39,164 nt of DNA from Hydrurus foetidus (lineage: Eukaryota). The stretch covers positions 1 through 39,164 of the forward strand of contig UYFQ01000703.1 of assembly GCA_900617105.1 (NCBI GenBank), read 5' to 3'. The notes beneath the pieces were generated by a model. It was not told where the DNA came from. It did no database searches and saw only the letters and a list, made by a program, of their open reading frames with translations. Made by a program: the position numbers and the translations under genes. This document shows positions 8,937 to 39,164 of this stretch, piece after piece. Numbering within the stretch: position 1 is the first letter of the stretch; every line of letters starts with the position of its first letter.

Positions 8937-9227
8937 TGTCATTGCATTGTCATTTCAAACACAAACACACAACACAATGCTCACCGAACGACCGAGCGGT
9001 CCCAACGGCACGATGACGATCCGATCTTTCCACGTTGAAGCAGTTCAGAAGAGAACTGGTCGCGACCAGTTCTCCAACAGCTACACATTGTCCATTTCAA
9101 TTGCATTCATTCCACTCAATTCACCTCATCGTTTCCATTCCACAATCACAATCTTTCACTCGGTAAACTTAAAAACCAATTCTGTTTCTACCGTTTTCCG
9201 TTTCTGGATTACCGCCGAATCCCGACA
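8937..9227 (+). repeat. 5' LTR of B (291 bp)
   Basis: Direct repeat of the split 3' LTR; about 2 substitutions seen. Confidence 0.95.
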
Positions 9228-14004: not shown

Positions 14005-14437
14005 AGAGTGTTCCTGATTCGTCCAAAAACGGGTAAAAGACAAATAAAAAAGACAAATCTGTCTCGAAACCATCGAAACCTCGTGCCCCTCGGACGAATT
14101 TTCGCAGAATCTGTCCTGCCTCGAGACAACATATCATCATTCAGAAACCCACTGTAAGAAAACTTCACTGGCAGCCGATCATGAGATTCTATCGCAGACC
14201 AGCGATTAAAAAGTTGTCACTTCGTCGGAGATGGTTAGGACTGACATCCTTGATGCGAATCTCGTGCAGAAAACTTGAGAAGGTGGACTTTGAGACTTTA
14301 TCTTTCGAACGTCAACGTCTCTAACAGCGTCGCAATCCATTACCTAGATTATCATCAAGCTCGTCAGAATCTTCCGCCGGATCAGATATGTTGAAAGTAG
14401 GAGGAAAGTAACGAGACTGAAGAGAGCAATTCTGAGA

Positions 14438-15559
14438 TTGTTGATTCGACGTCACAAGATAGTCAGTGTTCCCAAGGAATTAGAGGAGAAGCTGCCGAGA
14501 ATACGGAATCTTCGCAGAACAATTGATTCATTCTCCGACGAGGAAATTCCCGTCTACTTTCGATTCCGGAGTAAAGAGCAGCTTCATCGTCTGATGCGGG
14601 GTTTTCAAATTCCGATGCAAGTCAAATTACCTAAGACGGGCAATGTATTCGAAGGGGAAGAACTGCTTCTTATCGGACTGTATAGACTCCACCGACCAAC
14701 GACACTATCTGAAGGCGGTTTCAAGCTCATCTTTGGAATGGGACATACAGCAGTGTCAATGGCCTTCAATGCTTTCCTTGATTTCATAGTGGATAAATGG
14801 AGTTACATCATCACGGATAACATGGATTTTTGGCTACTGTATTTACCAGACTGTGCACAGGCCATCCGAGATAAATGTGTCGAAAAGGGTTGCTACTTTC
14901 CAGATGCGCGATCACCCGGAGGACTTAGAGTAGCAGCGTTTATAGACAACACTATGAACGCTACCTGCCGCCCTGGTGGAGGTCCTGCGCGAGATGGCCG
15001 AGATGCGCCGAGGAACGACCCTCTCATTCAGCGCGCCTGGTACAGCGGCTGGAAAAAGCTCCACGGAATGAAATATCAGACTATAGATATGCCGAATGGG
15101 ATGAACTTACATGTCTGGGGTCCCATCAGCGTGAGACACAACGATCTGACATCATTAAGAGATTCTGATGTCAATCAGAAAATAGTCGATATGCAAATCA
15201 ATGAACCGCTTCAGTGGGTATTCTACGGGGACTCTGCCTATGTTCATGTGCCAGATTCGCATATTCTAGCGAGGCACCATAACGAAGTCAACACTGAGCG
15301 TCAGAACCAAGAGAAAAGATGTCTCTCAGCTTGTCGTGAGTGCATCGAATGGGACTACGGCGACGTCGGAAAGATGTGGTCGATGGTGGATTACAAAAAG
15401 GTTTTAAAAATGCAATTAATGCCTGTTAAGGATATCTATTTGACTGCTCTAATACTAAGGAATGCTTACGTCACAATGAATGGTGGTACCGCTCCAGAAT
15501 ATTTTAATTTGACTCCACCAACTTTTGAAGTGTGGGTACAACAGGGTCCACGCTGTTAA
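14438..15559 (+). CDS. Harbinger/HARBI1-type DDE transposase (true start probably upstream and disrupted)
   Basis: FRFR..L HTH-like region, FIDNT, YSGWKKLHGMKYQ..PNG..GP..RHND, YGDSAY, RECIEW. The ORF track start is a TTG; the upstream ATG at 14231 is followed by stops. Confidence 0.88.
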   Translation: MLIRRHKIVSVPKELEEKLPRIRNLRRTIDSFSDEEIPVYFRFRSKEQLHRLMRGFQIPMQVKLPKTGNVFEGEELLLIGLYRLHRPTTLSEGGFKLIFGMGHTAVSMAFNAFLDFIVDKWSYIITDNMDFWLLYLPDCAQAIRDKCVEKGCYFPDARSPGGLRVAAFIDNTMNATCRPGGGPARDGRDAPRNDPLIQRAWYSGWKKLHGMKYQTIDMPNGMNLHVWGPISVRHNDLTSLRDSDVNQKIVDMQINEPLQWVFYGDSAYVHVPDSHILARHHNEVNTERQNQEKRCLSACRECIEWDYGDVGKMWSMVDYKKVLKMQLMPVKDIYLTALILRNAYVTMNGGTAPEYFNLTPPTFEVWVQQGPRC

Positions 15560-15610
15560 ACCTTATTGTTTAATAATATATTTCATTTTCGTTTTCATAA
15601 ACACTTCACT

Positions 15611-16474
15611 TTAAAACGTATCTTTCATGTTTCTCGCGAAGAACTCCATCATTTTCATTTGTAAGTTGGACGCGGCGAGGTCCGCTTTGGATCGTTCCAT
15701 TTCGGCTTTTGAACGCTCAAACGACATCTTCTCCTCTGAATCCATTCTTCTTTTCTCAATGTCTCGCGCGTGTGCTCTGTCGGCAATTGAGTCTTCCAGC
15801 CTTTGCTTTCTCTCAGCAATCTCCAATTCTAGGAGTCGTGGATCGTCTTTCATTGCCTTTAGAACCTCGACTTCAAAGTCTTCCCCTGCCTTGTCCTGCT
15901 GTTGAAATGATGGAGACCGTCTTCTTTTAATTGTTTTCGGGACGATGGTGCTTCCATCAGAGCAATCAGAAACAACATCCTCAGGAGAAGCTGCAGAGAA
16001 CTCCTCTTCCTCATGTCTGTCATGTCGCGCCAGCATTTTCTTCTCGTGCGTAATCATCTTATCGTTTCGCTCTTTGTCTTTCACTTTCTGATCCTCTTTT
16101 GCTTTTGCTGTTTCAAACCTCTCTTTCAGCATCGTCAGGACCAGCTTATCCAGCTCCGAGGGCTCCTCGTCTAGGCCAGACAGATTTGCCCCCTCGACAC
16201 TGATTGCGTACTTGGTGTCGACGTTAAAGGCGATACGGTCCCACTTCTTTTTTAAGGCAGCACCATCCAACATGGCTCCCGAAAATGCTTGATCAGAGCT
16301 GATTTTAATGCTCACTGCAGTAAACTTGTCAGTCAAATTGGTATCTCTCCGCATGTAACCTTTTTCCTTAAAGACATAGTTTGCTAGAGTGAGCTCCTTT
16401 TGCTCAGTCCAAGCAAAATTACGCTTCACAGGCTTCGCTGCCTTTTGAGTTGGGGGGTTTTCAATCTCTTGCAT
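15611..16474 (-). CDS. Harbinger accessory protein (Myb/SANT-like N-terminus, coiled-coil C-terminus)
   Basis: FAWTEQKELTL...LKKKW pattern and an E/K/R-rich tail; lies within the TIRs, convergent with the transposase; ATG at 16474. Confidence 0.75.
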   Translation of the reverse strand: MQEIENPPTQKAAKPVKRNFAWTEQKELTLANYVFKEKGYMRRDTNLTDKFTAVSIKISSDQAFSGAMLDGAALKKKWDRIAFNVDTKYAISVEGANLSGLDEEPSELDKLVLTMLKERFETAKAKEDQKVKDKERNDKMITHEKKMLARHDRHEEEEFSAASPEDVVSDCSDGSTIVPKTIKRRRSPSFQQQDKAGEDFEVEVLKAMKDDPRLLELEIAERKQRLEDSIADRAHARDIEKRRMDSEEKMSFERSKAEMERSKADLAASNLQMKMMEFFARNMKDTF

Positions 16475-16677
16475 TGTTAATTGATTGTGCCATTGTGCGC
16501 ATCGCAATGAAGCAAGTTTGTAAATCTTCAGAAAAAATTTCGAATTTATTTGAATCTTTTTGAAAATGTGTCCTATTTACTGACAGACAAATCAGAACCA
16601 CCTGCTTTTTGTCTTGCGTATGGGGACAGACTTGTCCACGGACAAATTTGTCCTGGACGGATCAGGAACACTCTATT

Positions 16678-21663: not shown

Positions 21664-22644
21664 TCAGTTGTTACTCTCCAATGGCGGAAATATGTAAGAT
21701 TTGAAGCGCTCCACTTCAGAAGCGGATCCATAGCAGACACCTACACGCCTATCGAGATCACCTACGATGACGTCCAGGAGTGATACTGGAGATACAGATT
21801 CAGCTGCCTCACTTGGGCAGACACACGTCGCGCCACCTGCAGCCTCGACAATAAGTGCTATAGGAGCAGCCTCAAAGAGTAGCCTGAGTTTGGCTTTCGC
21901 GGCAGGGGATGATGCATTTGCTAAGACTCCTTCTCCTTTGATCAGAATATGGTAAACATCTGGTACAAGGCCGCCACTGTAGCGCAAAGTATACTTGTTC
22001 TCAATCCAGTATGCAACCAGCCTCCTATAGCAATCATTGTCAACCGTCGCCCTCAGATTTCCTGGTGCGAAGGTTTTCCCCTTATGGGCGATGACAAGCT
22101 TATCTTTCGACACCATCCATCCTAAAGGAAGCATCGTCAGTTCCATGGCGATTGGTACGCCATCAACAGTGTTCATGCCATTTATAGCTATTGCTACAGT
22201 GACTTTCGGCCCATATTGCGCTATCATAGAGGCTGATTGTTCCCGACCACAACGATTTAGCAGCCCATTACCGGGCCATATTCCAACTATAGTGCCGACA
22301 GCAAAATTGCAGTCAACAATCGACGAGCCATCGAGGGGATCGAAGGCAACAGAAAATCCGACGCCGCCGCAGTCGATTTCAACTGGATTCTCCTCTGATG
22401 CGGCCACATGAACAAGAGAGCTCGATCGCAAACAGGCAAAAACCAGTTCATCAGTCTTCACATCGACGTCGAGCTGATGATCACCGAAAGCATTTTGAGT
22501 GCCAACCTCAGATGTTGAATAGCCGCAATCTCTAAGCGTGGTGCCAATCTCCCTTATACCTCCTAGTAATTTGGATATGAGATTGTGTAGGCCACTCTTC
22601 GTCGCTGTATTATTCAAAATTACGGTCAGTTCGGTGGGTAACAT
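21664..22644 (-). CDS. Sedoheptulose-1,7-bisphosphatase (FBPase class I family), 326 aa
   Basis: NAFGDHQLDVD, ASEE, FDPLDGSSIVDCNFAVGTI, FAPGNLRAT, YTLRYSGGLVPDV, KLRLLFEAAP; first ATG at 22644; intronless. Confidence 0.9.
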   Translation of the reverse strand: MLPTELTVILNNTATKSGLHNLISKLLGGIREIGTTLRDCGYSTSEVGTQNAFGDHQLDVDVKTDELVFACLRSSSLVHVAASEENPVEIDCGGVGFSVAFDPLDGSSIVDCNFAVGTIVGIWPGNGLLNRCGREQSASMIAQYGPKVTVAIAINGMNTVDGVPIAMELTMLPLGWMVSKDKLVIAHKGKTFAPGNLRATVDNDCYRRLVAYWIENKYTLRYSGGLVPDVYHILIKGEGVLANASSPAAKAKLRLLFEAAPIALIVEAAGGATCVCPSEAAESVSPVSLLDVIVGDLDRRVGVCYGSASEVERFKSYIFPPLESNN

Positions 22645-22799
22645 TATTCTCGACTTCCTCAAGTATGTCAGTTCTCGGAGCTGGTCCGCACGTTGAACTG
22701 CATGCAATTTATGCTGCCGTAGGGGTTGGAGACGCTCTCTACACCAGACGAGATGGATGGTAAAGATAGGCAAATGGGCAAAATACTGCACCGACTGGA

Positions 22800-22841
22800 T
22801 GTCGTAACTAAGGATCAGTTTCCACTGAATGGAAAACTATA
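22800..22841 (-). repeat. 3' LTR of C, distal fragment
   Basis: Identical to 33658-33699. Confidence 0.93.
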
Positions 22842-23083
22842 AGCCGCTCACACCGAAATTCTTTGTACTGGGTACCAGTTTTTCACCGCCGACAACAATC
22901 TGCACACTCGATCAGTCACATCACCTTCACTCCATAACCTCATAAATTTACAACTCGCAACCATCTGCTAAGTTACTGAGTGATTCTTGCAGAGTGGATC
23001 GCAGAGCTTCAGCCAAACGGCGAAAACGGGAAAGTTTTTTTTGCTCGGTAACTGCTTCCGCAAATATTTCGAATCGATTATTT
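22842..23083 (+). repeat. Left TIR (242 bp)
   Basis: Reverse complement of 27466-27711 apart from one ~4-nt indel. Confidence 0.95.
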
Positions 23084-23096
23084 TCTAGTCACGCTA

Positions 23097-25025
23097 ATGG
23101 GGATAAAAGACCTGATAAGCAAGATTTTTCCTGAGGAACTGAAGATAGAATCTAGCTCTGAGATCCTCAGAGACAAAACTATGGGCGTAGACGTATCAAA
23201 TTACATGTTTAAATTGATCACTACTCGTGATAATCTTGTCCGAGATTTTCACTGTGAACCGCGACTTGATACTTCTGCTCAAATTTTGAAATTCTGGGAC
23301 TCCTTCAAGAAACTTTGCGATAGATTTGATATCAAACTAGTGCTTGTATTAGATGGGAGAAGAAACACTGCAAAATTCGATACCAACCAGCTCCGAGATG
23401 CGAAGAGAGCAGCCATTATCGTAAAATTAAACGAACTTCTTCTAAATGCCAACAGTGACGATTCTGAAGAAATTTTGAAGCTACAGAAAAGTGCAATGTT
23501 CATATCAGAGGATATGCTATATGCTATTAAAACTTGGGCGGCTGAGAATGACGTTGTCTGTGTCCAATCACTCTATGAAGCGGATGCTGGTCTACAGCAC
23601 CTGGAAGATATGGGTATAACAGATGGAACTTTTTCTGAGGACGGAGATTTTTTTCCTCTCGACAGCAAATTGTGGGCTACAAAAGTGAGTCTTTCTAAAG
23701 GAATTTTAATCCTTTTCAACAGCGAGAATATCCGAACAGCCTTAACTGCACGGTTATCCCCCAGCAGTGAGGTTATCATGACAGCAGACCATGGACGGGT
23801 ACTGAGTGTGCTCCTGGGCAGCGATTTTTTGCCCCGACCAGCTGGTTTCGGACCAAAAACTGTTGAGAAGTTTATCGCAACTTGGATGATTTCATCTGAA
23901 GAGGAAAATAATAAAAGTTTAATGGAAATTGAAAAAGGTAAAAAAAAGAGGAAAAACGGTGATTCTGACGCACAAAATACCGATGCTTTTCCGAGTTACT
24001 CCTCCCGGTTTTGGCTCGCATTCAATATGTTAAAACATCCTCCTGTGTTCAAATTCACATCGTTGGAAGAAGGTGCATCTGTTAATATCGGGTTACTTGG
24101 TATTGACGACCTGAATCTAAGCAAGGAGCATGTCTTTCGCACACTAGGGTTCAATGCCTTACTAGACGTTGAGAATATAGGAGACTACAGAAAGCTTCTC
24201 TTCCTTGCGGATGACATATTCGTTAGGACTATGATGCCTCTACTACCAATTATTCAGCCAAAGAATTCTGAAGGATTGCTTCTTCCTTGGGGTTCTCAAC
24301 TAAACTTTGACAAGTGGCCTCCTAACATGTGCACATCTGACATGTTAAATAAGTGGTAACGAGCAAGAGGCGTACGTTATTCTCCAACTGTTGCTCACGA
24401 TGAATTAGTGAGATCGGTAATGACCCTTATGAATGAAGTGCCCCAGAGGGACATCATACCTGTCGACGATATACCTGAGGAGGCAGATTTTGGTGTGGGG
24501 CCTGGGGGTATACAGTGGAATTTGGACGGTGATTACAATTTTGCTCAGATAAGAGACAGCGAAGTTACTCCACCTATTAACGAAGAATTTATTGATGCAA
24601 TATTTGGTCATCGCGGTGGAGTGGAAAATCGGGCGATGCGACTCATACCTGGTGGCCACTTCAGTATGTCTACACTCAAGATATGTCGCATCATGTGCAA
24701 GCGTTCAGGCGTAAACGAAGAATGCGTTATGTATCAAATAAAGAGCACACCTTCAATGAAAGCCAACGAGTATGCAGTGAATTTAGTATTTAGAAAAGGT
24801 GTTTTAGATAATGATGAAGTTGGAGTCAGGTTTGTTAGAAGCCCTTACTCTCACTGTGATTGCCCAGCAGGCCAAATGTTCTGTTCTCACATGTTAGGTT
24901 TCTTAGGTATACTAAGAGTAATTCAAGAACATCTTCTGCTTCCATACAGCAAAATAAGTGCTTTACTTCCTCCGTCTGTTAAGGCTTTATCAAGTACAGG
25001 CATCTTACTTGAATATGTATTCTGA
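23097..25025 (+). pseudogene. XPG/FEN1/EXO1-family 5' nuclease + SAP + SWIM protein (~642 codons, one in-frame TAA at 24357-24359)
   Basis: MGIKDL, GVDVSNY, LVLDG, YEADA, SEDGDF, LLGSDF..GFGPKT (H3TH); SAP-like TSDMLNKW*RARG...DELVRSV; SWIM CDCPAGQMFCSH. The two ORFs are in the same frame. Confidence 0.88.
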
Positions 25026-25043: not shown

Positions 25044-27459
25044 TTACACATACTCTCTATCTTTGTATTTCTTACAGAGATTAGCATTTGCATGACCCCA
25101 TGATATGCAATCTTTGATATAAGGTAAACAACTAGCAGGTATCACATCAGTCAGTAAATTTTCATCAGTAACTCTTGCAAAGTTAGTTTCTGAAATGTAT
25201 CTCAACTTGCATTTTACCATATCAGATGAAAGTTCAGATGTAGTAAACTGGTCTCTCCCTGATAGGAATGATGGAGTCATCTGGACATTCATGTTTGGAT
25301 ACCGTGTGGCATCATTAGCGAATCCACGATCTGCAAGTATAGCCCACCCCCGAGGGAATTTTCCTAACCGTAACGGTAACCTCAACTCTGCTAATCTCAG
25401 ATTGCGTACGACGGGGCTTAGATCGATGCCATTGACTTTCAAGGTTTGACCTTTCAGCACTCTTATCATATCGCTTCTTAACTTTGTAGTCACCTCTAAA
25501 TACTCGGATAGGAGACAGGATTCTAAATTACCACATGCGTACTGTGTGTGCAATCTCTTCAAACATTTCAATTGAATCAATTTAGACTCTGGCGATTTGT
25601 TTGGTCCTGATCTTAATACAGCTTGCTCTACTACATCGTGATCCTCTGTTGAATATATTCTTGCCTTCTTCCTACTATTTGCAGTGTTTTCTTTGTCAGC
25701 TGAGATCATACTCTGAAACCACTTATCTATTCGACTACAAAAATGTTCGCTGTCTGCTTCTCCTGGTGCTATATCTTCGTCCCCTTCCATGACTTCTCCC
25801 TGTACCTTAGTAACACCAGCAACCATTTTTCCTACATTTCTCGTACTAACACGCGATTGTATTGGACGTTTTATTTTCTTTAAATCCTTGTAGAGCTGTT
25901 TATCAATTAAACGCAAGGGTACTTCTCCAATATGAGACCCCAGTACCTGCACTATGTGAGTTTCAGACGCTCTTCCAAGATAAGGCTCAGATCTCTCACC
26001 GTTCAAGCCATTATTAAGCACCCAAGATAATACCCTCAGAGCTGAACAGTTAACTTTGTTGGAGTGTCCTGCTCTAGTAATTCCACTGTGAGTACGTATC
26101 GTTTCTGTTTTAAAATCCTCGCCATCAACTAGGCCACACACTTTGTCAGTAGAGCCGTTGACAAAATCTTCAGGAGTGAGAGATATAAGAATGGATTCGT
26201 TGATATCTAGTATAGACAGATTTGCACCCGCTTCTCCCCAAAGGGGGGCCCATATTTTGACATACCGGCCTATATTACTTCGCCCCCATATGTTACCAAT
26301 TAACTCAAACTCCAAACCTTTTCTGAAATACATTTTTGTTATCATACTTTTTTCAAAGTCACATATTTGCCCGTCTTTGATTTCTACCGTTGTATTCACA
26401 TAGGGCCAAAGACACTTGTGGTAAATGACGAACTCTGCAAAACTAATGAATCCGAGCCAGTAGTGACAGAACTTAGGGTGACTCTCGTGCCAGATAGGGC
26501 AAACGATGTTAGACCGAGTAATACCTTTAGATAAAGTCACTTTCATTTTCCCCAATTCGTCTGCAACTTCACGATTTTTTATCTTGCAACAACCGGTTAC
26601 TTTCAGCTGACACCTCGAGCTGCCTTTTCAATACCTTGACTTCACTTTCAATTTTTCTTAGCACTTTCTTCCCTTCATCGGTCATATTATTAATTATCGT
26701 TACTTTCTTTTCTTCGTCAGCAACTATTTTATTTTTACTCTTCTGCTCCAGCATTTTTCTCTCCTCAATCAGAATCTCAGCAGCCATAAATGCGGACTTC
26801 TGTCGGACCGTTGCTAGTCGGGCAAGATCTTCTCCAGGGAACTTATTTTCACTGCTGTTGGAAGACAATGCTTTTCTTATCGCTGCAGGTACAGAGTGGT
26901 CGCCAGAAGCCAGATTGTTAATCTGCTGATCCAAGAATACAGTATTTAGATAATTTCGGTAAAATCCAACAGTAGCCGAGGGAACATTAAAATAGTAGCA
27001 AGATGAGGACGAGATAGCTGCTGGTACTCGATCAGGGGTTGTCAATCCTATCTCTCTGCCTAGTTCGAGGCTCAGAATCTTTGGAAAGATCTTTTTCGAT
27101 GATCCTTCATTGGAATTACGGTGTTCCTCGAGAACCCTCGGATGCCAGTGACTGAAGGCCAAAAAATTTGGTGATTTGTCTTTCAAATCTGTCAAGCGAA
27201 GATGATTAATCACTAATGACCTATACTTGTCAGATATGATAGCTTTAGGAGTCGAACTCGTCTTCGATTTGGTCGGAATATAGCACAAGCCCACCCTGTG
27301 AAAATGAGACAGTAATTATACAGTAGAGGCGTCGCAGTTGAAAGCTCCTGAAATTCCTGAAAAGATAGGATCTTACATATCATGCTGTTCGAGAGCAATT
27401 AGACGCTCCTGCAGTTGACTGCACTCATCAGAATCAGTGCAACAGCACTTTCTACCCAT
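25044..27459 (-). pseudogene. ISL2EU-type DDE transposase; exon 1 27459-27377, intron 27376-27296, one frameshift at 26575-26580
   Basis: Cys-rich THAP-like start MGRKCCC..C, coiled coil, HTH (FEK..ITKMYFRKG..FELIG.IWG), LVDG, YLGRASE, ILADRGF, TPSFLSGRDQF, LRYISE. Confidence 0.85.
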
Positions 27460-27465
27460 ATCCTC

Positions 27466-27711
27466 AAATAATCGATTCGAAATATTTGCGGAAGCAGTTA
27501 CCGAGCAAAAAAAACTTTCCCGTTTTCGCCGTAACTGTGGCTGAAGCTCTGCGATCCACTCTGCAAGAATCACTCAGTAACTTAGCAGATGGTTGCGAGT
27601 TGTAAATTTATGAGGTTATGGAGTGAAGGTGATGTGACTGATCGAGTGTGCAGATTGTTGTCGGCGGTGAAAAACTGGTACCCAGTACAAAGAATTTCGG
27701 TGTGAGCGGCT
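27466..27711 (-). repeat. Right TIR (246 bp)
   Basis: Inverted copy of 22842-23083. Confidence 0.95.
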
Positions 27712-27714
27712 ATA

Positions 27715-28036
27715 TCCTTCCTGGGTACGCGCTCCTTCTGCAGGTTCAACACGTGCGCTAGCAACTTTCCCGGGCTCAAGGCGAAAGCTCTGCTGGTGTG
27801 AGTATTAAGGTAATTAACGATGCAACATCGCTTACATCGTTCATGGAGACAGGCGAAAAGATCGCGCTGTCCCGCACAGTCAAACATGGTGCACTTTCAT
27901 CTTTTGATGTTCCTGGGTTAAAGGAACCTGGACCGGTGGAGTAGCGACCACCACACGGCACACGACGTACGAAACGTCATCAAATGTACATACGTAATAA
28001 CTTATACGGTTACTTAGCTCATTAGTTATTCCGACA
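27715..28036 (-). repeat. 3' LTR of C, main part
   Basis: Matches 33700-34022 with about 3 differences; preceded on the minus strand by CATAGGGGTG (28046-28037). Confidence 0.95.
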
Positions 28037-28663: not shown

Positions 28664-31600
28664 TTAGTTCTTCTTGGATGTAGGGTATGGAAATCGTGGG
28701 TTGAATTTGGTGCGTACGGGTGTCGGCGCGGAGTCCGTACGGTCCTCAGTCTTGCATCCATCTGCGTACGTGAGGGTAGGTGGTGAAGTGTTGAGCAGCT
28801 CCTTCCTGAGCTTCTTGAACAATTCACCCTGCAGTGGCTTGGTTAGAATGTCTGCAATCATGTCAGTAGTAGGTAGGTACACAATGTCTACATCGCCTGT
28901 ACTGATTCTGTCGTGCAGGAAAAATACCGTATATCAACGTGCCGCGTACGTTCGCTGTTCGAGCGACCGTTACGTATGAGCTGTATCGTAGACTGATTGT
29001 CTTGATACACTAAGGCGGGAGGTTGAGGGTGTCCCTGGCACTCCAGGAAGTTCCTGGTCCACAGAACTTGGTTGGCGGAGTCGCTGAGTGCGACTAGCTC
29101 GGCCTCCGTGCTGGACTTTGTCATGAGGCGCTGAGTACCGCTCTTGGCGTAGATCGCTCCCTTCCCAAGGGTGATTACGCTGCCTGTGTGACTTTTCATA
29201 TCGGGATGTATGGCAAAGGATGCATCGATATATGCAATAACATGAATAGGTTCATATACTTCAAATGTTATACCCGTATGCTGACTACCCCGTATGTACT
29301 GTATCGTACGGGTCAGCTTGTCGTAGTCGTCCCTTTGGGGCCTCAGCACTCTCTTTGTCAGGAACGCTACGGCAGTCAGAATGTCTGGCCTCGTCCTCTT
29401 ACTCAGGTAGAGTAGCTTCGCTGTAATAGAGTGAAAACGCTCACGCAGATTATCAGGTAAGGGTGAGTCAGATTCATCAGGTATAGTGAATAGATTGGCT
29501 CGTGCGGGTGTGTTTGCCGTGCCCGGCATATCCTTACACCCCTCAATGAGGTCTTGTACGAAGCCTTCCATAGTCATTTTAACGCAGCCTTCCTTGCTGA
29601 AGTCGAAAGTCATGCCTATGTAATTTAAAACTTTTCCTCTGTGTTTGGTTAGACCGGGATATATAGTTTCAATTTGTTTTATAACATCATCAACGCGAGA
29701 TTCACTTGAAGCAGTAATTATCATATCATCAACATGAATTACGAGTGATGTTTGTGTGTTATCCGATTCAGTTCGGTTGAATACGCATATGTCATATTCA
29801 TTAGCAGTATAATTGAATTTAATCAAATCACTGGATAGCTTATCATACCATAGTTTAGCAGATTCAACGCATCCATATAAAGCTTTCTTAAGTTTAACAA
29901 TACATGTTCCATTGTTATTCATGTATTTGTTATATGTTGCATCAATCTTAATTAGTGCAGCAGTCAGTTGTTTATTCAGACGCATGTATACAACATGGTC
30001 GCCGGTCAGCGGCATATCACTATTCAGGAATGCACCGGGAAAGTCAACAGTGGCGACAGCACGCTTCTGTCTAGCAGCAATTGCAGTCAGTATGAATACA
30101 CTAGATGTGCTAGCAGTAGGCGAGGCGCCATTGTTATAAACATCTCTATCTTGTAAGTGCCCACCGGCTACTAGTCTAGATTTCAGTTTTTCAAACATAC
30201 CATCAGCAGTGTACTTTTCTTTTAGAAACATGCTACTAGATATGATGGTGCGTTTTTGTTGTGGGGTGAGGGATTCATAAGTTACACCTTCCCAAACATT
30301 CTTTTCACACATTTGTTTAAGTTCAGATGTGATGGAGTCAACAGCTATCACCCCTAACTTATTAATACCTTCATTAACAGTCATTTTATACAGGTGAGTG
30401 TGATTATAAAACAGGTTACCAACATATTTCTTATCCCATTTTCCAAGTTGGTGATTTCTACCACTTCTACGCAGTATGGGTGAGTTAATAACAGGTGGGT
30501 CATATGCAGTGTCTATTATGGTGTCAGGTGGAGTGAATACTTCAGGGTGTACAGTTACATCAGCGAAGTCATCTTCATCATCACTTATGCCAAATATGTC
30601 ATCTATCAGTGCTTGATCATATTTAGGTTGGGGTACATGTGTATCATCATGTGTGTCATCATAATATAGTTCGTCATTGTCGTATGTAGTGTCACTCACA
30701 TATAGTGTGTCATCTACATACTCATCTAATGTGGGTGGGTGATTTTCATCAGACATATCGAGTTGTGATTCAAGATGTGTTTCGTTATCATTGTGATCGT
30801 TATCTTCAATAATCTCATCGGTGTAATCTGCGTTAGCATTTTCATCGACAGTTTCATATTCAACATCACCAATGTAAGCACTATCATCTTCAACATCGTC
30901 ATCATCATCGAATACAATGTGACTACTATTCTCAAATACAGGCTGTTTAACATTGGCAGTTTTTCTCTTTGAAGCTAGTACATTCAAGTGTAATATAACT
31001 TCATCAGGCATAGGTAGTACAGTTGCTTTAGTACGTTTAACAATGCGTTCGTTAGCTAACAGCATGTAGTACCATGAACCTTCTAGATTACCGGAGCTCA
31101 TAAGTGCTATGGCCCCGGCTGTTCTTGGTTTGGTAGAGTTATCAATGACATCATTATGCACTTGGACATAATCACCAAAACCATGTTTAATCTCCTTATC
31201 TACGTCTAACTTTCTTCCAGTTAATTTCTCTCGTGGACTGATGTGATTAAGTGAGTTACGTGTGGGTGCTAATACAATTCTACTGACTGCATACTTAACT
31301 AACCACACTTCTAATTTCTCATTCAATGAGAACGGTAGAGAATTGACTACTGATCTTACTCTCTCCTTTATGTGTCGTATCTTACGCTCGACTACGGCTA
31401 CGGCTTCTCCGGCTCCGGTAACGTCTAGTACTATACCTCTTAAGCCGACTTTGTTGTGAAACCATTCTGTATTGATTGCACCCTCGCCGTCTACTCGGAT
31501 CATCTTAACTCTGAATCTGTACTTTACCATGCTTGCTAATGAAGTCTTTAGGCTGTTCCATATGCTCTTGTGCTCTCGGTTAGCTAACTTGCTAACGTAT

Positions 31601-32550
31601 AGGAACTCGATGGGCTGCACTACTGATACTAGATATGGTACTTGGTTGACAAACATTATATCTACATACATAATCTGTTCTGTCTTGTACTCAATACCTA
31701 TCAGTGGTAGCTTCTCTTCTAACTTGGCCTGGTGACTGGTGGTCTTCCCCTTAAGGGATCCCACGTCCGGTCCCCATATATCAATGGCTCTATGTACGTC
31801 TCGCGCAGTCACTTTGCTATTAGTCAAATTCCCTTGGGATATCAACTTAATAGTCTGTGCTGCGCTAGCGTATCCTAATCTACGCTGATAGTCTCTAGCT
31901 AACGACGCGTCTCTGACTTCTCTTACTGTATACTTCTTCTTATTCTGCTCTACTGTCGTAACTAACATTGGCATGCATTCTGTTACCATAGTGTCAAGAT
32001 TACATTGGTATATATTCATAGCCTCATCTCGTGAGAATCTATAAAAATATTTTCCGCTGACGTCTTGCACTATGTAACAATCATAGTCATGTAAGTACTT
32101 AACATCAGTACAGTCACGTACAGCATTACCAAAAGACAATATGTTACCAGCACAGTCAGGGCTATAGTACACGTTGCCGAACGCCGACACCCCACGTTTC
32201 TTGATTATTAGCGGTTTTCCTTTCGGATTCACCCCGCTAACAATCATAGGTGTGGGTGCGTGTTCGACATTATACAGCAGGGATGAGTCGTTGAAAACCG
32301 ACTCACCAGCACATGTGTCAAGCAGAATGTGTCTACTTCTAATCATGTTATATATATTGCATGTATTGGCACTAAAAACAATATGATCACATGTTTCAAT
32401 TCCGCTAGTGGAATCAGCCAAACATGGAGGATCGGTGAGTGTATGTATAGGTGTGTGTGTGGATGTAAGTGTGGGTGAATGTACAGGTGAGGAATAATGT
32501 ATCTTACTTAGTTTACCGACTTTCCACTGGGTGCTGATGCACCCGCTTGG
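28664..32550 (-). CDS. copia pol of C (PR-IN-RT-RNase H); one frameshift near 28920
   Basis: LLDTCAG; YVDIMF/RVDGEG/VERKIR; KSRLVAGG, VDFPGAFL, KKALYG, IHVDD; IDASF, SSTEAE; tail ADILTKP in another frame after an A-run. The frame is open upstream to 32550. Confidence 0.9.
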
Positions 32551-33620
32551 CTATCCTTGGCCGTACACTCATAGGAGTAGTGTCCGGCTTCACCGCACTT
32601 ATTGCAATTTCCGGGACGGGTGCCGTACGACGTACGCCCACCCCTCCCTCTGTCCCCGTTCCCACTAGCCTTCCCTTTACCAGCATCAGTAGGTTTCTCA
32701 CCGCCAGCCGTTTTCGTGGCGAAAACGTTGGTCTGGTTGGGTGGTGTTGCTGCTGCTGATTTCCTCGGCGTGACCTTAGCCATCTCGATGTATGCATCCT
32801 CGAGTGTGTCTGGCCACTCCTTCAGTCCGTGCTCGTAGTATTCTACGTAGTGACGGTAACCGGAGTTCAGGCCGTTCATGAACTTCATCCCTGTTAGAAG
32901 TTCATTATGTGCGGTCATGGCCTCGTTGAACTCGGGCATGACCCCTAGTGCCCGCATCGTGTCCTTGTATCCGGATTTCAACGCTTTAAAGCGTTGATAG
33001 TAATACTTCAGCACGTCATTCTGCTCCATCTTGACTGTCTCGTAAGCCATTCGGACTCTCAACAGATTTTGATCGGCGCCCAACCTCGGATCAGAGAGGT
33101 GGGTCAGAATGATGGCTCTCAACAATAGCAATGGGTCCTCCGCAGTCATAGCTGCTGGCCCTGTTTCTGCCTCTCGAATTGTCGCTTTCGACCCTTCGCT
33201 AATCTGACCGAGCATTAGTCCGAAGACTTGCTTGCGGTCCTTTCTCAGAGTAAGTATATTTCTATCATATAGCTCCAATGCTCGCTTCCATTTTGTTGAT
33301 ACCATGAAATTTGCATCGGCAGCTATGTCCGCTGGAGCGACATATTGCGGGTAATCACCCGGTATGCCCTCGTTGCCGAATATCTCAGAGATATCGGACT
33401 TATAGTTCGCGCGAGTATACTCGCGGAACTTCCTCATCCATGCGCTTACGCTGCCATGGTTCATCTCTCTTCCAAGATCCAGGAATGCGCCAATCGCGGC
33501 TACCGTTCCTGTTCTTGGTGGAGGCTTCGCACCGCGGCCAGCATTCCCTCTGCCACCGTTGGCAGGGTTTGCTCGACCGCCTGCGGTATTGTGTTCTCGG
33601 CCTCGGCCTCTGCCTTTCAT
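32508..33620 (-). CDS. copia gag of C
   Basis: 370 aa starting 37 nt after the 5' LTR; RG-rich N-terminus; CNKCGEAGHYSYEC zinc knuckle. Confidence 0.9.
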   Translation of the reverse strand: MKGRGRGREHNTAGGRANPANGGRGNAGRGAKPPPRTGTVAAIGAFLDLGREMNHGSVSAWMRKFREYTRANYKSDISEIFGNEGIPGDYPQYVAPADIAADANFMVSTKWKRALELYDRNILTLRKDRKQVFGLMLGQISEGSKATIREAETGPAAMTAEDPLLLLRAIILTHLSDPRLGADQNLLRVRMAYETVKMEQNDVLKYYYQRFKALKSGYKDTMRALGVMPEFNEAMTAHNELLTGMKFMNGLNSGYRHYVEYYEHGLKEWPDTLEDAYIEMAKVTPRKSAAATPPNQTNVFATKTAGGEKPTDAGKGKASGNGDRGRGGRTSYGTRPGNCNKCGEAGHYSYECTAKDSQAGASAPSGKSVN

Positions 33621-33647
33621 GTTGCAACTGGTTGCAACGAAAGCAAC

Positions 33648-33657
33648 TCGTTAATTA
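33648..33657 (-). promoter_or_regulatory. PBS-position sequence TAATTAACGA, complementary to the element's own LTR (33796-33805)
   Basis: Abuts the LTR end; forms a perfect 10-nt inverted repeat with the LTR-internal site. Confidence 0.75.
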
Positions 33658-34022
33658 TGTCGTAACTAAGGATCAGTTTCCACTGAATGGAAAACTATAT
33701 CCTTCCTGGGTACGCGCTCCTTCTGCAGGTTCAACACGTGCGCTAGCAACTTTCCCGGGCTCAAGGCGAAAGCTCTGCTGGTGTGAGTATTAAGGTAATT
33801 AACGATGCAACATCGCTTACATCGTTCATGGAGACAGGCGAAAAGATCGCGCTGTCCCGCACAGTCAAACATGGTGCACTTTCATCTTTTTGATGTTCCT
33901 GGGTTAAAGGAACCTGGACCGGTGGAGTAGTGACCACCACACGGCACACGACGTACGGAACGTCATCAAATGTACATACGTAATAACTTATACGGTTACT
34001 TAGCTCATTAGTTATTCCGACA
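33658..34022 (-). repeat. 5' LTR of C (365 bp)
   Basis: Uninterrupted copy of the split 3' LTR. Confidence 0.95.
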
Positions 34023-34993
34023 CTGGGTGTAACCTAAGACCGTTCCGTTTCTTACGGTTTGAGATCTGGGAATTGACTTTACGTTTTTTTCCCAGATCCC
34101 ATTTCGATTTCTCAGAACCCAATCCACGGTCAAGTGTTCTAACTTCTGGATGTCACATTACCGTGTAGGTTGGCTACTCATCTGTTATGAATGCAGCAGG
34201 CAGTTTCTCGATTACGCTAGCCGAGATGGATGTGTATTCCTGAACGTCATGAATTTTGTCTCCTCATTGATGTTTGGATTAGTTTTGATTGAATTATTCC
34301 TTTCAGAGCTGACTCGGGTGTTGAGGAAACAGACTCCAGATAGTAATTTGGATGATGTGTTGATAATAACTTACACAACTTTGTACAGCAGGCGATCAGG
34401 GTTACTGAAAGAGGCACATCGTTCGAAACTAGAAATTCTTAAATTATCCGCTGACACGAATGAAAATTTCTGGTTGTCCGCTGGCAGGGATTCGACACGG
34501 AGATTAGAAGCAATTAGCATCAAGCATCACACAAAAGTGGCAGCGTTTACCCCGTAAAATTAGATTGTCATCGTTATCATGGAGAGTATGAAACAAGCGC
34601 ATCGAAAAGTCGCGGCGATAAAATACACGACGCAAGGTGCAGAAGATCAAAATACACGACAGCGGAAAAAATGTGCGATGAATCACGCAGCCATAAATCC
34701 GCGCTCTTTCTTTGTTCAGCGCTCATCATGTGTCACTACCCGGCCTGCTGAATGCCGTCTTACTTCGTTGACGCCGCCAACCACGTCATTGATTCCGCCG
34801 CCAACTACGTCATGAAAGTCTTCAAATCAACGACGCCTATCAGTTTAGCAAATTTCTAATGAGGTTTAACAGAGTCAAAACGTTAGGAAACTTGCCGAGC
34901 TGTTCGTCGTCAGAGACTTTGAAGTTGTTTTGAATCGATGCATCTTCATATGCCTTCTAGTCCGGATAGGAAAGTAGGTCGATAGAGTGGAGG

Positions 34994-35506: not shown

Positions 35507-38500
35507 TTAGGCTGATGTCTCAATGTTTTTGGGAATGAAATGTTTCATTTTATTATCCCGTAAATAATCATGGAGTGCTTCACAGAGCCGTAGTGATTTC
35601 CACGGCTCCCATGTATTATGAGAATCATCGTAGTTGAGCCATTTAACATGGAACGACATTGTAGTCGGTTTCTTGGTGTCACCAGCGTGACCCAGAACTT
35701 TCTCAACCACGAACTCCATGTAATCGCGACGAGCAGTGTCAGCAGGTATATCTACCTCTGGGTCATAATTGAATATTTTCAAATTTTTGACATGAACACT
35801 TCGTTTCTTGTGATTTACAAGATTTGCGAGAACGTACTCGGACCCCTTAAAGGAGACAATACAGTAAGGGCCATGCCACTTAGTATGTAATCGAGTTGGA
35901 GGTCGATCAGTGTATCGGCATAAGACATATGACCCCACGGGGAACACAGTCGCTGATTCAGCTGACGCGGCGTTTTTAGCATCCGCTTTTAACAAAGTTT
36001 GAACCGCAGTTTCAAGTACTTTGTCTTGTACACTTATCAAATCTGATATGTACGTTGATCTTGAATGTGTTCCGACACTTAAGTGTGGAGTGAGAATACC
36101 ACGATTCAAATCAAGTTTGTTCCCAAACAATAAATGAGCGGGGCAAACACCTGTGCGTCTATTAACTGAACTGTTAATGATACGTTGCACGAATGGGATT
36201 GACTTAGCATATCCCTCAAGGGTTTGTTTATCAAAAACTAAACCTCTTAGGTGTCTATTCACCTCTTTGTTGACTCTTTTAACAATTGCATTCTCTTGTT
36301 TCGAGTAAGCAAGGGTGAGATTATGTGGTGTCCCACAAAGATCTAAGAATTCTTTGATCAATTCATTTGCGAAATGTGATCCTCGATCAGATCTAATCAT
36401 ATTTGGTGATCCAAATCGACCAAAATGCGCAAGCAAACAGTCAGCTGCTGATTTAGCATCTGCGTCTGCACACCAGAACAATTCTGTCCATCGTGTGAAT
36501 GTATCGATGATGACAAGGATATAACCTTTGTCAGGAAATGGACCAATATAGTCAACATTTAGCGTATCGAAGATAGCATAATTTGAAGTTGCAAAATGAG
36601 ACGCATTGATCTTAGGATCTTTTGCACTCAATTTTGACAACACGGACAGTTCTGTATGAACGTACGTACATGTTGTTTCATGTGTTTCCAAACTTGTTGT
36701 AAACTAAACAACCGAGTAAGGGTACGGTCTACGCCGTTGTGACCGACAATTGCATTGTGGCACATTTGAATGTATTCTAACTGATCGTCTGAAGCCGGTT
36801 CTATGACCGTCAGAGCTGATACAGTGAAAGAAGATGATGAAGTTGGAAGTAATTCCAATTCTTCTGTTCGTAATGGCAGAGCAATTTCTGTCAGATTAGG
36901 ACAAAGCCTTGACAGTGCGTCTGCCAAAACATTTGAAGTACCGGGTACGAATACCACGGTAAAATCTAGTTCTTGCATAGCAATGAACCATCTCGCCACC
37001 ATTGAGGTAGGATTTTGTTTCATATATGTTATGTTCAAATGATCCGTATGGATAGTGAACGTACGATCTCTAATTAGATAATCGAGTTGTGTACAACAAA
37101 AGAAGATGGCATAAGCCTCTTTTTGTATCGTAGACCACCTTATTTGTGTGGGTGTCAACGATTTGCTAATGAAAGCAATTGGTTGCCAAATGGCACCAAC
37201 AACTTGGAATAAGACACCACCGATACCAAAGTCGGACGCGTCTGTATACAAGCGGATGTCTAACTTATTGTCATCAATGAAGTACATTAATGGACAACGA
37301 GATATAGCAATCTTTGTGTCAACAAATGAGTTGGTGCTCTTTTGAGTCCAAACTACAGCAGAACGTCTCGGAGCAGAGTGATCAATCATATCCTGCATTG
37401 GCTTAACCAAAGTGGAATGCATTGGTACAAACTGTCGAAAATAGTTTGCTAAACCTAAAAATGACCTGAGTAAGGTTAAATTTTTAGGTATAGAAAAGTT
37501 TAAAACTGTTTCTATTTTTTCTTTTGACATGGATAAACCATCTTTGTCAACGACTCTGCCAACGTATTCAATACGTGGAAGGCCGAAACGGCACTTTTAG
37601 CTTTGAGTCTTAGACCCTTAAGTCTAAATCTTTCAAAACTTTTTCAAGTTAGTTAGAAACTCTGCTTCACCCTTGCCATATACTATACAATCGTCGAGAT
37701 ACATCTCAACAATGATAGATAAGGCCATAGAGGACCGCCGTTACCATCTGCTCTTGAAAGTAAGAGGGGGCTCGACACGGACCAAAGGGCAGTCTCGTAA
37801 ACTGAAATACCCCGCAAAGCATATGAATGCCGTAAAATGCGGTGTGCGGTGTAACGGTGCTTGATGGTAACCTGCGGTTAAATCCATCACACCAAAATAT
37901 CCGGTTTTTTATTACCGATCCTCTCAAAGAGGTGTTTGATATTTGGTAACGGGAATGAGGCCGGCTTAAGACACCTATTAAGTGGCCGGTAATCGATGCA
38001 GGTTCGAAATTTACCGGGTGACTTAGTTACTATTACAGGATGACTGTAATAAGCGGCATCTGATCGCTCTATAACCCCTGATGCAAGCATCTCGTCAAGG
38101 TTTTCTTTGAGAGCAACCTCTTTTGTTGATGACTGGGGACGTACCGGCGTACGGTTTTCGTCTTTTTCCCACAACTCAAGTGGGATGTTAATCTCAAAGG
38201 GTTTAAGTGACGCTGGTTTCTCAGCTAATTGATCACTGAAGATGTCTGAATATTCAGAACAGAGCTCTCGGAGCTTCCTTTGAAAGCTTTCATCTCCTTC
38301 AAAGGTAATCTCGTTGAGGAAATCCTCTGGCCCTTTGGGCAAGTCATCTTGACTAGGTTTCTCCGCCAAGAAGGGGGCAAACGTATCTATCTTGCCATCG
38401 TCAATCTCGTCAACTGAGAGTGCGACACCACTGGGCCATAAAGGCTCAGTGACATAGTCTAAGGTATCAGAGTCCTCAGAAGTGTTTGTAGGGGTGGGAA

Positions 38501-38573
38501 TCTGGTCGCCACCTAGGTGCGGTGTATCACCCGTACGTTTTGCGAGAATAGTAGTGACACTATTGGCAGACAC
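35507..38573 (-). pseudogene. gypsy pol (RT, RNase H, integrase, chromodomain), several frameshifts
   Basis: RTCIDYRPLN, TRLPFG, YLDD (near 37700), LRSFLGLANYFR, TDASDFGIG, EKEAYA-like QKEAYA, TDHLN, ADALSR, H..GH..CPCC, VDYIGP, SDRGSHF, WHGPY, chromodomain VEKVL..VKWLNY...TWEP. Confidence 0.92.
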
Positions 38574-39164
38574 ATACTGCAGAATAATGATTTTTACTCC
38601 GACTGATCATATCTTCATTGTGATGAATCAGTCGACGATGATCGATGCGTCTCTACCTCGAATTTGCCTGAGGCCTGGAAGCATTTTTTTCCACACGCTT
38701 TCTGGCCTGTGCAACTTAGGGATACAAATTTCGGTATAACCACGTCTAGTACTCTATAAGCACACTGTCAAACTTTGCCTCCCTAAGTTTAAAAATTGAT
38801 TTTTTTGTGGCTGTGTTTCCACTCTGCGACATGCTGACCTATCTCTACTACGAGCTTGAACACCGATTCAACATCTTTCATGTGCCATTGTGATGGTACA
38901 GGATTTAGTACCACATTCCTACCCTCCATAGTACCGTATAGCCGTCCGTACATGTGGCTGAGAGTCCTTCTGACCTCTCGCAGCTTGTAGTTACCTTGCA
39001 ACGCTTTGCATGCAGAGTTTTACACCTCTGCAAGCTCACCCACCACTCTTTCCGTTGTAAGCCTAACTACCTTTCTGCCTCTCCTAGCTTCATTTGGACT
39101 ACAGTGGATCTACTCGTTCCGCTTTCCTTCTAAATTCTACTACTTTGCCCCCTACTACCCATCC

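Follow-up and report, generated by a model that had tools for sequence, protein, structure and literature searches.

The closest described systems belong to the PHIS (PIF/Harbinger-ISL2EU-Spy) superfamily. According to the available text of PMC4482050, PMC4122938 and PMC9179366, ISL2EU elements possess two ORFs, one for a transposase with HTH and DDE_Tnp_4 domains and the other for a nuclease, and ISL2EU as such is defined by its YqaJ partner, its animal hosts and its AT target duplication (PMC4482050). The ISL2EU exonuclease is described as a domain only, with no account of its function found in the available literature on ISL2EU; we also found no mention of SWIM in the accessible parts of these three sources, nor of XPG in the accessible supplements of PMC4482050. 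Most Spy elements, in the same superfamily, consist of a single ORF, as stated in the available text of PMC4122938. PIF/Harbinger and Pangu also combine a DDE_Tnp_4 transposase with a second gene, which is a Myb/SANT partner in PIF/Harbinger (TWA duplication) and an ORF without known domain in Pangu (ANT duplication). Kolobok, which represents another superfamily with a TTAA duplication, has accessory nucleases of the DEDDh (KolobokD), lambda exonuclease-like (KolobokE) and His-Me (KolobokP) types, and the words "XPG" and "SWIM" are absent from the available main text of that study (PMC9587614). In Tn7, the non-transferred strand is cut by TnsA, fusions of TnsA and TnsB (TnsAB) occur naturally, and mutation or loss of the nuclease leads to cointegrates, according to the available text of PMC9881144. 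The literature search found no description of an XPG/EXO1 partner or of a split transposase for the PHIS superfamily, with Repbase, Dfam and most subscription journals lying outside the search. Among the Repbase entries are three-gene HarbingerS elements from oomycetes that carry a nuclease gene, and the family described below may have been catalogued earlier.

The window analysed here, a 39,164-nt stretch of Hydrurus foetidus DNA (contig UYFQ01000703.1), carries a 4,870-bp (about 4.87-kb) element, which is bounded by terminal inverted repeats (TIRs) of about 242 bp and lies inside a Copia LTR. The left TIR (22842..23083, plus strand) starts with AGCC, or with AAGCC from 22841 if the target duplication is AT, and forms an inverted-repeat pair with the right TIR (27466..27711, minus strand), the perfect arms being 174 and 67 nt. 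The duplication (22839..22841 on the left and 27712..27714 on the right, plus strand) can be read as ATA, or as AT followed on the left by the first A of the element; the empty site is compatible with both, namely ATA with perfect ends or AT with a right end one base short. In the relatives L007 and L022 the duplication is readable as AT only, and ATA precedes AGCC in each listed flank of the other insertions (one in runs X3/X4, two in X8, and one in X9 as a consensus of two contigs).

Repeat comparison showed that the element interrupts the 3' LTR of a Copia (left piece 22800..22841, resuming at 27712-28036), the 5' LTR of which is uninterrupted (33658..34023) and provides the empty site, and that the gag and pol genes lie between the two LTRs (28888-33650). 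The joined flanks of the element match this second LTR copy exactly, and the insertion therefore postdates the formation of the interrupted LTR; identity between the two LTRs is still about 99%. The depth of the element is close to that of the single-copy flank in run X1 and 1-2 times the flank in X3, contig depth being a rough measure. Run X1 carries a nonsense codon in the nuclease gene and a frameshift in the transposase gene, neither of which is present in runs X3 and X7, where the DGK motif at the first catalytic Asp (D1) is restored; the window copy is therefore broken, and intact alleles exist. We conclude that the window copy is a recent insertion, now broken. In RNA run X21 (about 6% read; the same species label, of a strain that may be element-free), no reads fell on the element and the neighbouring gene was covered. 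A joint in run X7, considered as an excision footprint, was rejected, since it reads as an LTR variant.

The nuclease gene (23097..25025, plus strand) is an ORF of 642 codons, including one in-frame TAA, and was identified by Pfam, a family profile, a fold search and motifs. It consists of an EXO1/XPG core (about residues 1-320), a SAP-like motif (about 410-445) and a SWIM-like zinc finger (552-598). Pfam matched XPG_N (E 9.6e-6) and XPG_I (E 4e-6) above the cut-off, the family profile had human EXO1 as its best match (E 4.4e-15), and human EXO1 was also the top match (E 1.2e-10) of a fold search with a low-confidence model of the homologue P0003 (pLDDT 55.5). The original prediction of a nuclease domain with retained acidic motifs between the TIRs was borne out, since VDVS, LDG, EAD, SEDGD and GSD, as well as SMK and CDC..CSH further on, were all located as described. 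An alignment of 54 rows has 40 that bear XPG; of these, D182, D184 and D243 are found in all 40, K93, R100 and E161 in 39, D86 in 37, D32 in 36 and D163 in 32 (E in 7); these positions presumably correspond to EXO1 catalytic residues, some by equivalences that we assume and others by alignment with EXO1. The EXO1/FEN1/XPG fold, with its acidic and basic catalytic residues, is thus present, as judged from sequence and model, and 5' exonuclease or flap endonuclease activity is predicted.

The in-frame stop (codon 421, 24357..24359) proved to be a mutation of the window copy. Fourteen homologues were found at 57-97% identity, seven of them full length (640-660 aa, 63-70% identity), and codon 421 is Leu in all 11 that cover it, as well as in runs X3 and X7; the nuclease is therefore one ORF, and the concern that intact copies might hold two separate ORFs can be set aside. 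The stop was also considered as an assembly error, which was rejected because the X1 contigs contain it, and as an intron or the mark of a second gene, which was rejected because of Leu in the homologues. The segment after the stop has no Pfam match, either to YqaJ or to SWIM, so that the SAP and SWIM assignments depend on the motifs, on weak Pfam SWIM matches in relatives (E 0.04 to 0.0008, below the cut-off) and on Atlas look-alikes of residues 395-641 in SAP/SWIM clusters (0.95 and 0.92). Accordingly, the predicted SAP-SWIM fusion holds at the level of the SMK and CDC..CSH motifs, but not as a Pfam SWIM match in the window, and we word these parts as SAP-like and SWIM-like. As predicted, the protein ends soon after SWIM, 44 residues past the SWIM histidine, without a YqaJ domain, and Pfam gave no YqaJ match among the ORFs of the window or the family proteins scanned (27 and 38).

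The transposase gene (25044..27459, minus strand) is convergent with the nuclease gene and encodes a Cys/His N-terminus, a coiled coil, HTH_Tnp_4 and a DDE_Tnp_4 core. Alignment placed the catalytic residues D1 near 26126, D2 near 25331 and E near 25190, and these are invariant across 32 aligned transposases. The window copy has a one-base frameshift near 26575, and a GT-AG intron of 81 nt (27296..27376), predicted from the DNA, contains both in-frame stops of the 5' region. Pfam matches of the window protein are weak (E 0.04 each) and are split by about 190 inserted residues that separate D1 from D2 (25370..25950), while DDE_Tnp_4 is above the cut-off in the relatives. Despite the Cys and His motifs at the N-terminus, 11 sequences gave no Pfam match at E up to 1 to THAP, the N-terminal domain of ISL2EU transposases. 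A structural model of the transposase (pLDDT 73) had no PDB match at E up to 0.001, the top one being Tn5 transposase (E 1.4).

To judge the linkage of the two genes, at least 32 loci were fetched by transposase motifs, with the nuclease not used in the search. Nuclease-family sequence is present in 13 of the 32 transposase loci, always on the opposite strand, being convergent in nine (L002, L004, L005, L013, L014, L016, L019, L021 and L029) and divergent in four (L009, L012, L025 and L032). The profile that gave these 13 was built partly from six of them; a profile from the window's clade alone already matched 12 of the 13, one of them (L025) weakly, and L021 was matched through its tail alone. 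Seventeen further loci could not be judged because of their short or fragmentary state, and the remaining two, L007 and L022, have no nuclease gene. In addition, four nuclease/transposase homologue pairs have a longest contig of equal size (4749, 4433, 4185 and 12180), which is indirect evidence of linkage. The pairing persists down to about 25% identity and is a family trait. The architecture is hence not unique to this copy, and the view that the nuclease belongs to the element instead of being passively captured was upheld by the family-wide linkage.

A profile search of 1.84 billion representatives returned 1,936 nuclease matches at E up to 0.001, 383 at 1e-10 (including some host EXO1s) and 47 at 1e-30, the 150 matches listed being examined. 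The named family members are all diatoms, namely Chaetoceros tenuissimus, C. neogracilis and one MMETSP transcript for the nuclease, and Skeletonema menzelii and Thalassiosira oceanica for the transposase. Of the few Atlas cluster members that have a record, most are from diatoms or green algae. The family is large and has no name in the protein collections searched, where its genes are annotated as plain 5'-3' exonucleases or hypothetical proteins. A nuclease-motif scan of metagenome contigs and a transposase scan of viral contigs gave no matches.

Similar to ISL2EU, the family has two ORFs, an HTH and DDE_Tnp_4 transposase, a nuclease as second gene, an AT duplication in the relatives, a length of about 4.8 kb and TIRs within the range of 6-259 bp given in the accessible parts of the three PHIS sources. 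Unlike ISL2EU as described there, it has an EXO1/XPG fold in place of YqaJ, has ends beginning with AGCC/AAGCC (window) or AAGCG (relatives) where ISL2EU TIRs usually begin with GG, has diatoms as named hosts where the available text of PMC4482050 gives animals only, and shows no Pfam THAP match, and its domain X and split or fused layouts, discussed below, are not described for ISL2EU. The family is therefore of the PHIS/ISL2EU kind but outside ISL2EU as defined, being set apart by the published description and not by ISL2EU reference sequences, the search for which returned members of this family only. For residues 395-641, an Atlas SAP-YqaJ cluster scored 0.81 (rank 16), a lead for a SAP-SWIM module shared with ISL2EU. 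It had been proposed that a non-homologous nuclease replaced YqaJ; the nuclease does occupy the place of YqaJ (PMC4482050, available text), but its replacement is a hypothesis, the trees being unrooted. Different nuclease folds accompanying one eukaryotic DDE superfamily recall Kolobok. The family differs from PIF/Harbinger in having no Myb/SANT partner and no TWA duplication, and from Pangu in its ATA or AT duplication and XPG second ORF. Compared with cellular EXO1/FEN1/XPG, the fold and catalytic residues are shared, but identity is about 20-28%, a SAP-SWIM(-X) tail replaces the host C-terminus, and the gene lies between TIRs.

Most relatives' nucleases extend about 200-280 aa beyond the SWIM region, and 11 of the 32 aligned transposases have an insertion like that of the window. 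A profile of these 11 insertions gave 19.5-48.8 bits with the nuclease tails of P0080, L009, L005, L012, L019 and L016; L002, whose tail is the shortest, reached 12.8 bits and was not above shuffled sequences (best 13.1 among 1,800). The reverse profile, from 12 nuclease tails, matched the transposase insertions (best E 5e-16), and hhalign of the cut alignments gave 98.5% (E 3.3e-15), a relation that comparison of whole-alignment profiles had missed because the insertion is present in only 11 of 32 rows. On these profile matches, the insertion and the tail are assigned to one domain, X. The domain has no Pfam or PDB match, and in the transposase model its region is predicted to be helical and preceded by a disordered acidic linker. 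The window nuclease would thus end after SWIM because its usual C-terminal domain is now within the transposase.

Three gene layouts can be distinguished. Layout A combines a nuclease that ends in X with an undivided transposase. In layout B, one gene encodes nuclease-X together with the D2/E half of the transposase, and the D1 half forms a gene of its own, convergent with the first. In layout C, that of the window, X lies within the transposase and the nuclease is short; this movement of the nuclease tail into the transposase is what the window adds as new. Layout B is represented at the DNA level by one locus, L005 (79-bp inverted repeats), with a D1-half gene and a convergent ORF of 943 codons comprising nuclease, SAP, SWIM, X and the D2/E half, and at the protein level by the fused P0080, P0091, P0113 and P0125. 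No partner transposase is assigned to P0089 and P0092-P0095. The breakpoints agree: the D1 half of L005 ends at the motif where the window insertion starts, and the window nuclease ends where the relatives' tails start. As the genes are convergent, inversion of the D2/E segment would convert A to B, and inversion of X together with D2/E would convert B to C, making two nested inversions in total; by this geometry no single inversion would convert A to C, the series being unrooted and its direction not fixed.

Some further arrangements were observed. L017 (394-2590) joins the N-terminus and HTH of the transposase to its D2/E half and has the D1 segment (Asp changed) on the opposite strand, an arrangement that one further inversion from layout B would produce; P0164 looks similar. 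In P0207, a cluster of 1102-aa members, the nuclease core is absent, and SAP-SWIM and a tail are joined to a complete transposase. The right end of L005 (4853-4938) consists of a short unit flanked on each side by an element-type end motif, one of them outward-facing; the inner one is found again at the left end, and such composite-like termini could allow internal inversion.

A careful nuclease tree was built from 23 of 52 rows, leaving out near-duplicates, likely truncations and long branches. Seven short-tailed proteins and four of the five B fusions form one clade (98/96), with all nine A rows outside it, as are the B protein P0113 and two short-tailed proteins. In the tree of the D2/E transposase half, B groups with C at 80, in a clade that also takes in L017 and the A-type L029, and a joined-core transposase tree (27 rows, 11 dropped, quick method) gave neither a B+C clade nor a single C clade. 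The broad nuclease alignment yielded no usable pattern. The A-B-C series is supported by the breakpoints and the nuclease tree and is unconfirmed by the transposase trees.

We propose that this is a two-gene, ISL2EU-related transposon in which the EXO1-fold nuclease is likely a subunit of the transposase and would cut or trim the 5' non-transferred strand in a TnsA-like manner, a reading to which we give a rough probability of 0.55. TnsA itself has a fold unrelated to that of the EXO1 nuclease. The DDE core would make a 3'-OH nick and join it to the AT target, and the nuclease would remove the donor DNA remaining on the 5' ends, before or after joining. According to PDB titles, EXO1 acts on 5' flaps and recessed ends, and a DDE enzyme cutting the transferred strand only would leave a substrate of this type. 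Similar to TnsA+TnsB or TnsAB, a proposed functional analogue, a DDE enzyme is here paired or fused with a second nuclease; unlike the bacterial Tn7, the family has no TnsC or TniQ, and TnsAB joins whole enzymes (PMC9881144, available text) whereas here the DDE core is divided. Since X can belong to either chain and each chain can carry part of the active site, we infer that the two chains assemble; X and half of the active site could change chain only because both proteins would already be together on the transposon ends. A more far-reaching version, to which we would give somewhat less than even odds, is that of a two-chain eukaryotic transposase with EXO1-type second-strand processing, the DDE site of which can be divided between opposite-strand genes and still work, and in which X moved via the split state.

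The single-ORF Spy elements (PMC4122938, available text) count against an obligate nuclease, and so does the nuclease-free element (L007:5823-8012, with an open 577-aa transposase ORF, and L022:4992-6147), one end-bounded element that is present at two sites, each with an AT duplication. It counts against an obligate cis partner and may be complemented in trans or move alone, and the suggested requirement of 5' processing for transposition is hypothetical.

Double-strand-break end resection is the established host role of EXO1. The nuclease could be tethered to a transposase that cuts both strands and act after excision, resecting the broken donor site so that sister-chromatid repair recopies the element and copy number rises. 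We regard this as unlikely, perhaps one chance in four, although it draws on that host role, on the L007/L022 element having moved despite lacking a nuclease gene, and on the unrelated accessory nucleases of Kolobok, one of them 3'-5' (PMC9587614, available text), so that no single chemistry need be required. Copy number, by the rough measure of contig depth, looks low (about flank depth in X1, 1-2 times in X3), and a role in the core reaction would account for the linkage and the shared catalytic core no less well. Less likely again is an optional helper apart from the transposase, engaged in clean-up of intermediates or anti-silencing, with layouts B and C as tolerated inversion accidents. 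The nuclease-free copies, the transposase trees, which do not resolve the series, and the odd layouts L017, P0164, P0206 and P0207, which point to frequent rearrangement with some copies possibly dead, are in keeping with a helper; however, in the B fusions of five divergent lineages the ORF is open over 941-1030 aa and the nuclease and D2/E residues are kept, and a core whose halves lie on opposite strands cannot be restored by frameshifting, so that two chains must assemble. Finally, a fragment of host EXO1 captured passively, or a pair of separate ORFs, as the stop, the frameshift and EXO1 as nearest solved relative might suggest, is very improbable and is refuted by the full-length homologues at 63-70% identity, Leu421, the deep transposase linkage and an identity of 28% over 271 aa to canonical EXO1 (P0226, one of the profile matches), unless the host's own EXO1 is near-identical.

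The existence of a sister group of ISL2EU with an unrelated 5' nuclease suggests that the activity matters. As the EXO1 active site is well mapped, the question is directly testable by single mutations, with intact alleles available in wild runs, and layouts A, B and C are natural constructs to map the complex. A DDE core spread over two convergent genes would, if true, be a rare active site assembled in trans.

The window also contains a second PHIS element (14005-16674) in another Copia LTR, with AGAG ends, a DDE_Tnp_4 ORF (14348-15559, E 9e-8) and a convergent ORF without a Pfam match (15611-16576). Its ATT duplication was confirmed by the empty LTR at 9109-9111, and it fits the description of Pangu in the available text of PMC4482050. 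A gene of the FBPase/SBPase family (21664-22836, minus strand) abuts the Copia LTR with its 5' end, and its body is covered by X21 RNA reads; run X3 appears to be without the Copia at this site. Gypsy-type fragments with integrase, chromodomain and RNase H lie at 35507-38606 (minus strand), and the rest of the window consists largely of nested Copia elements.
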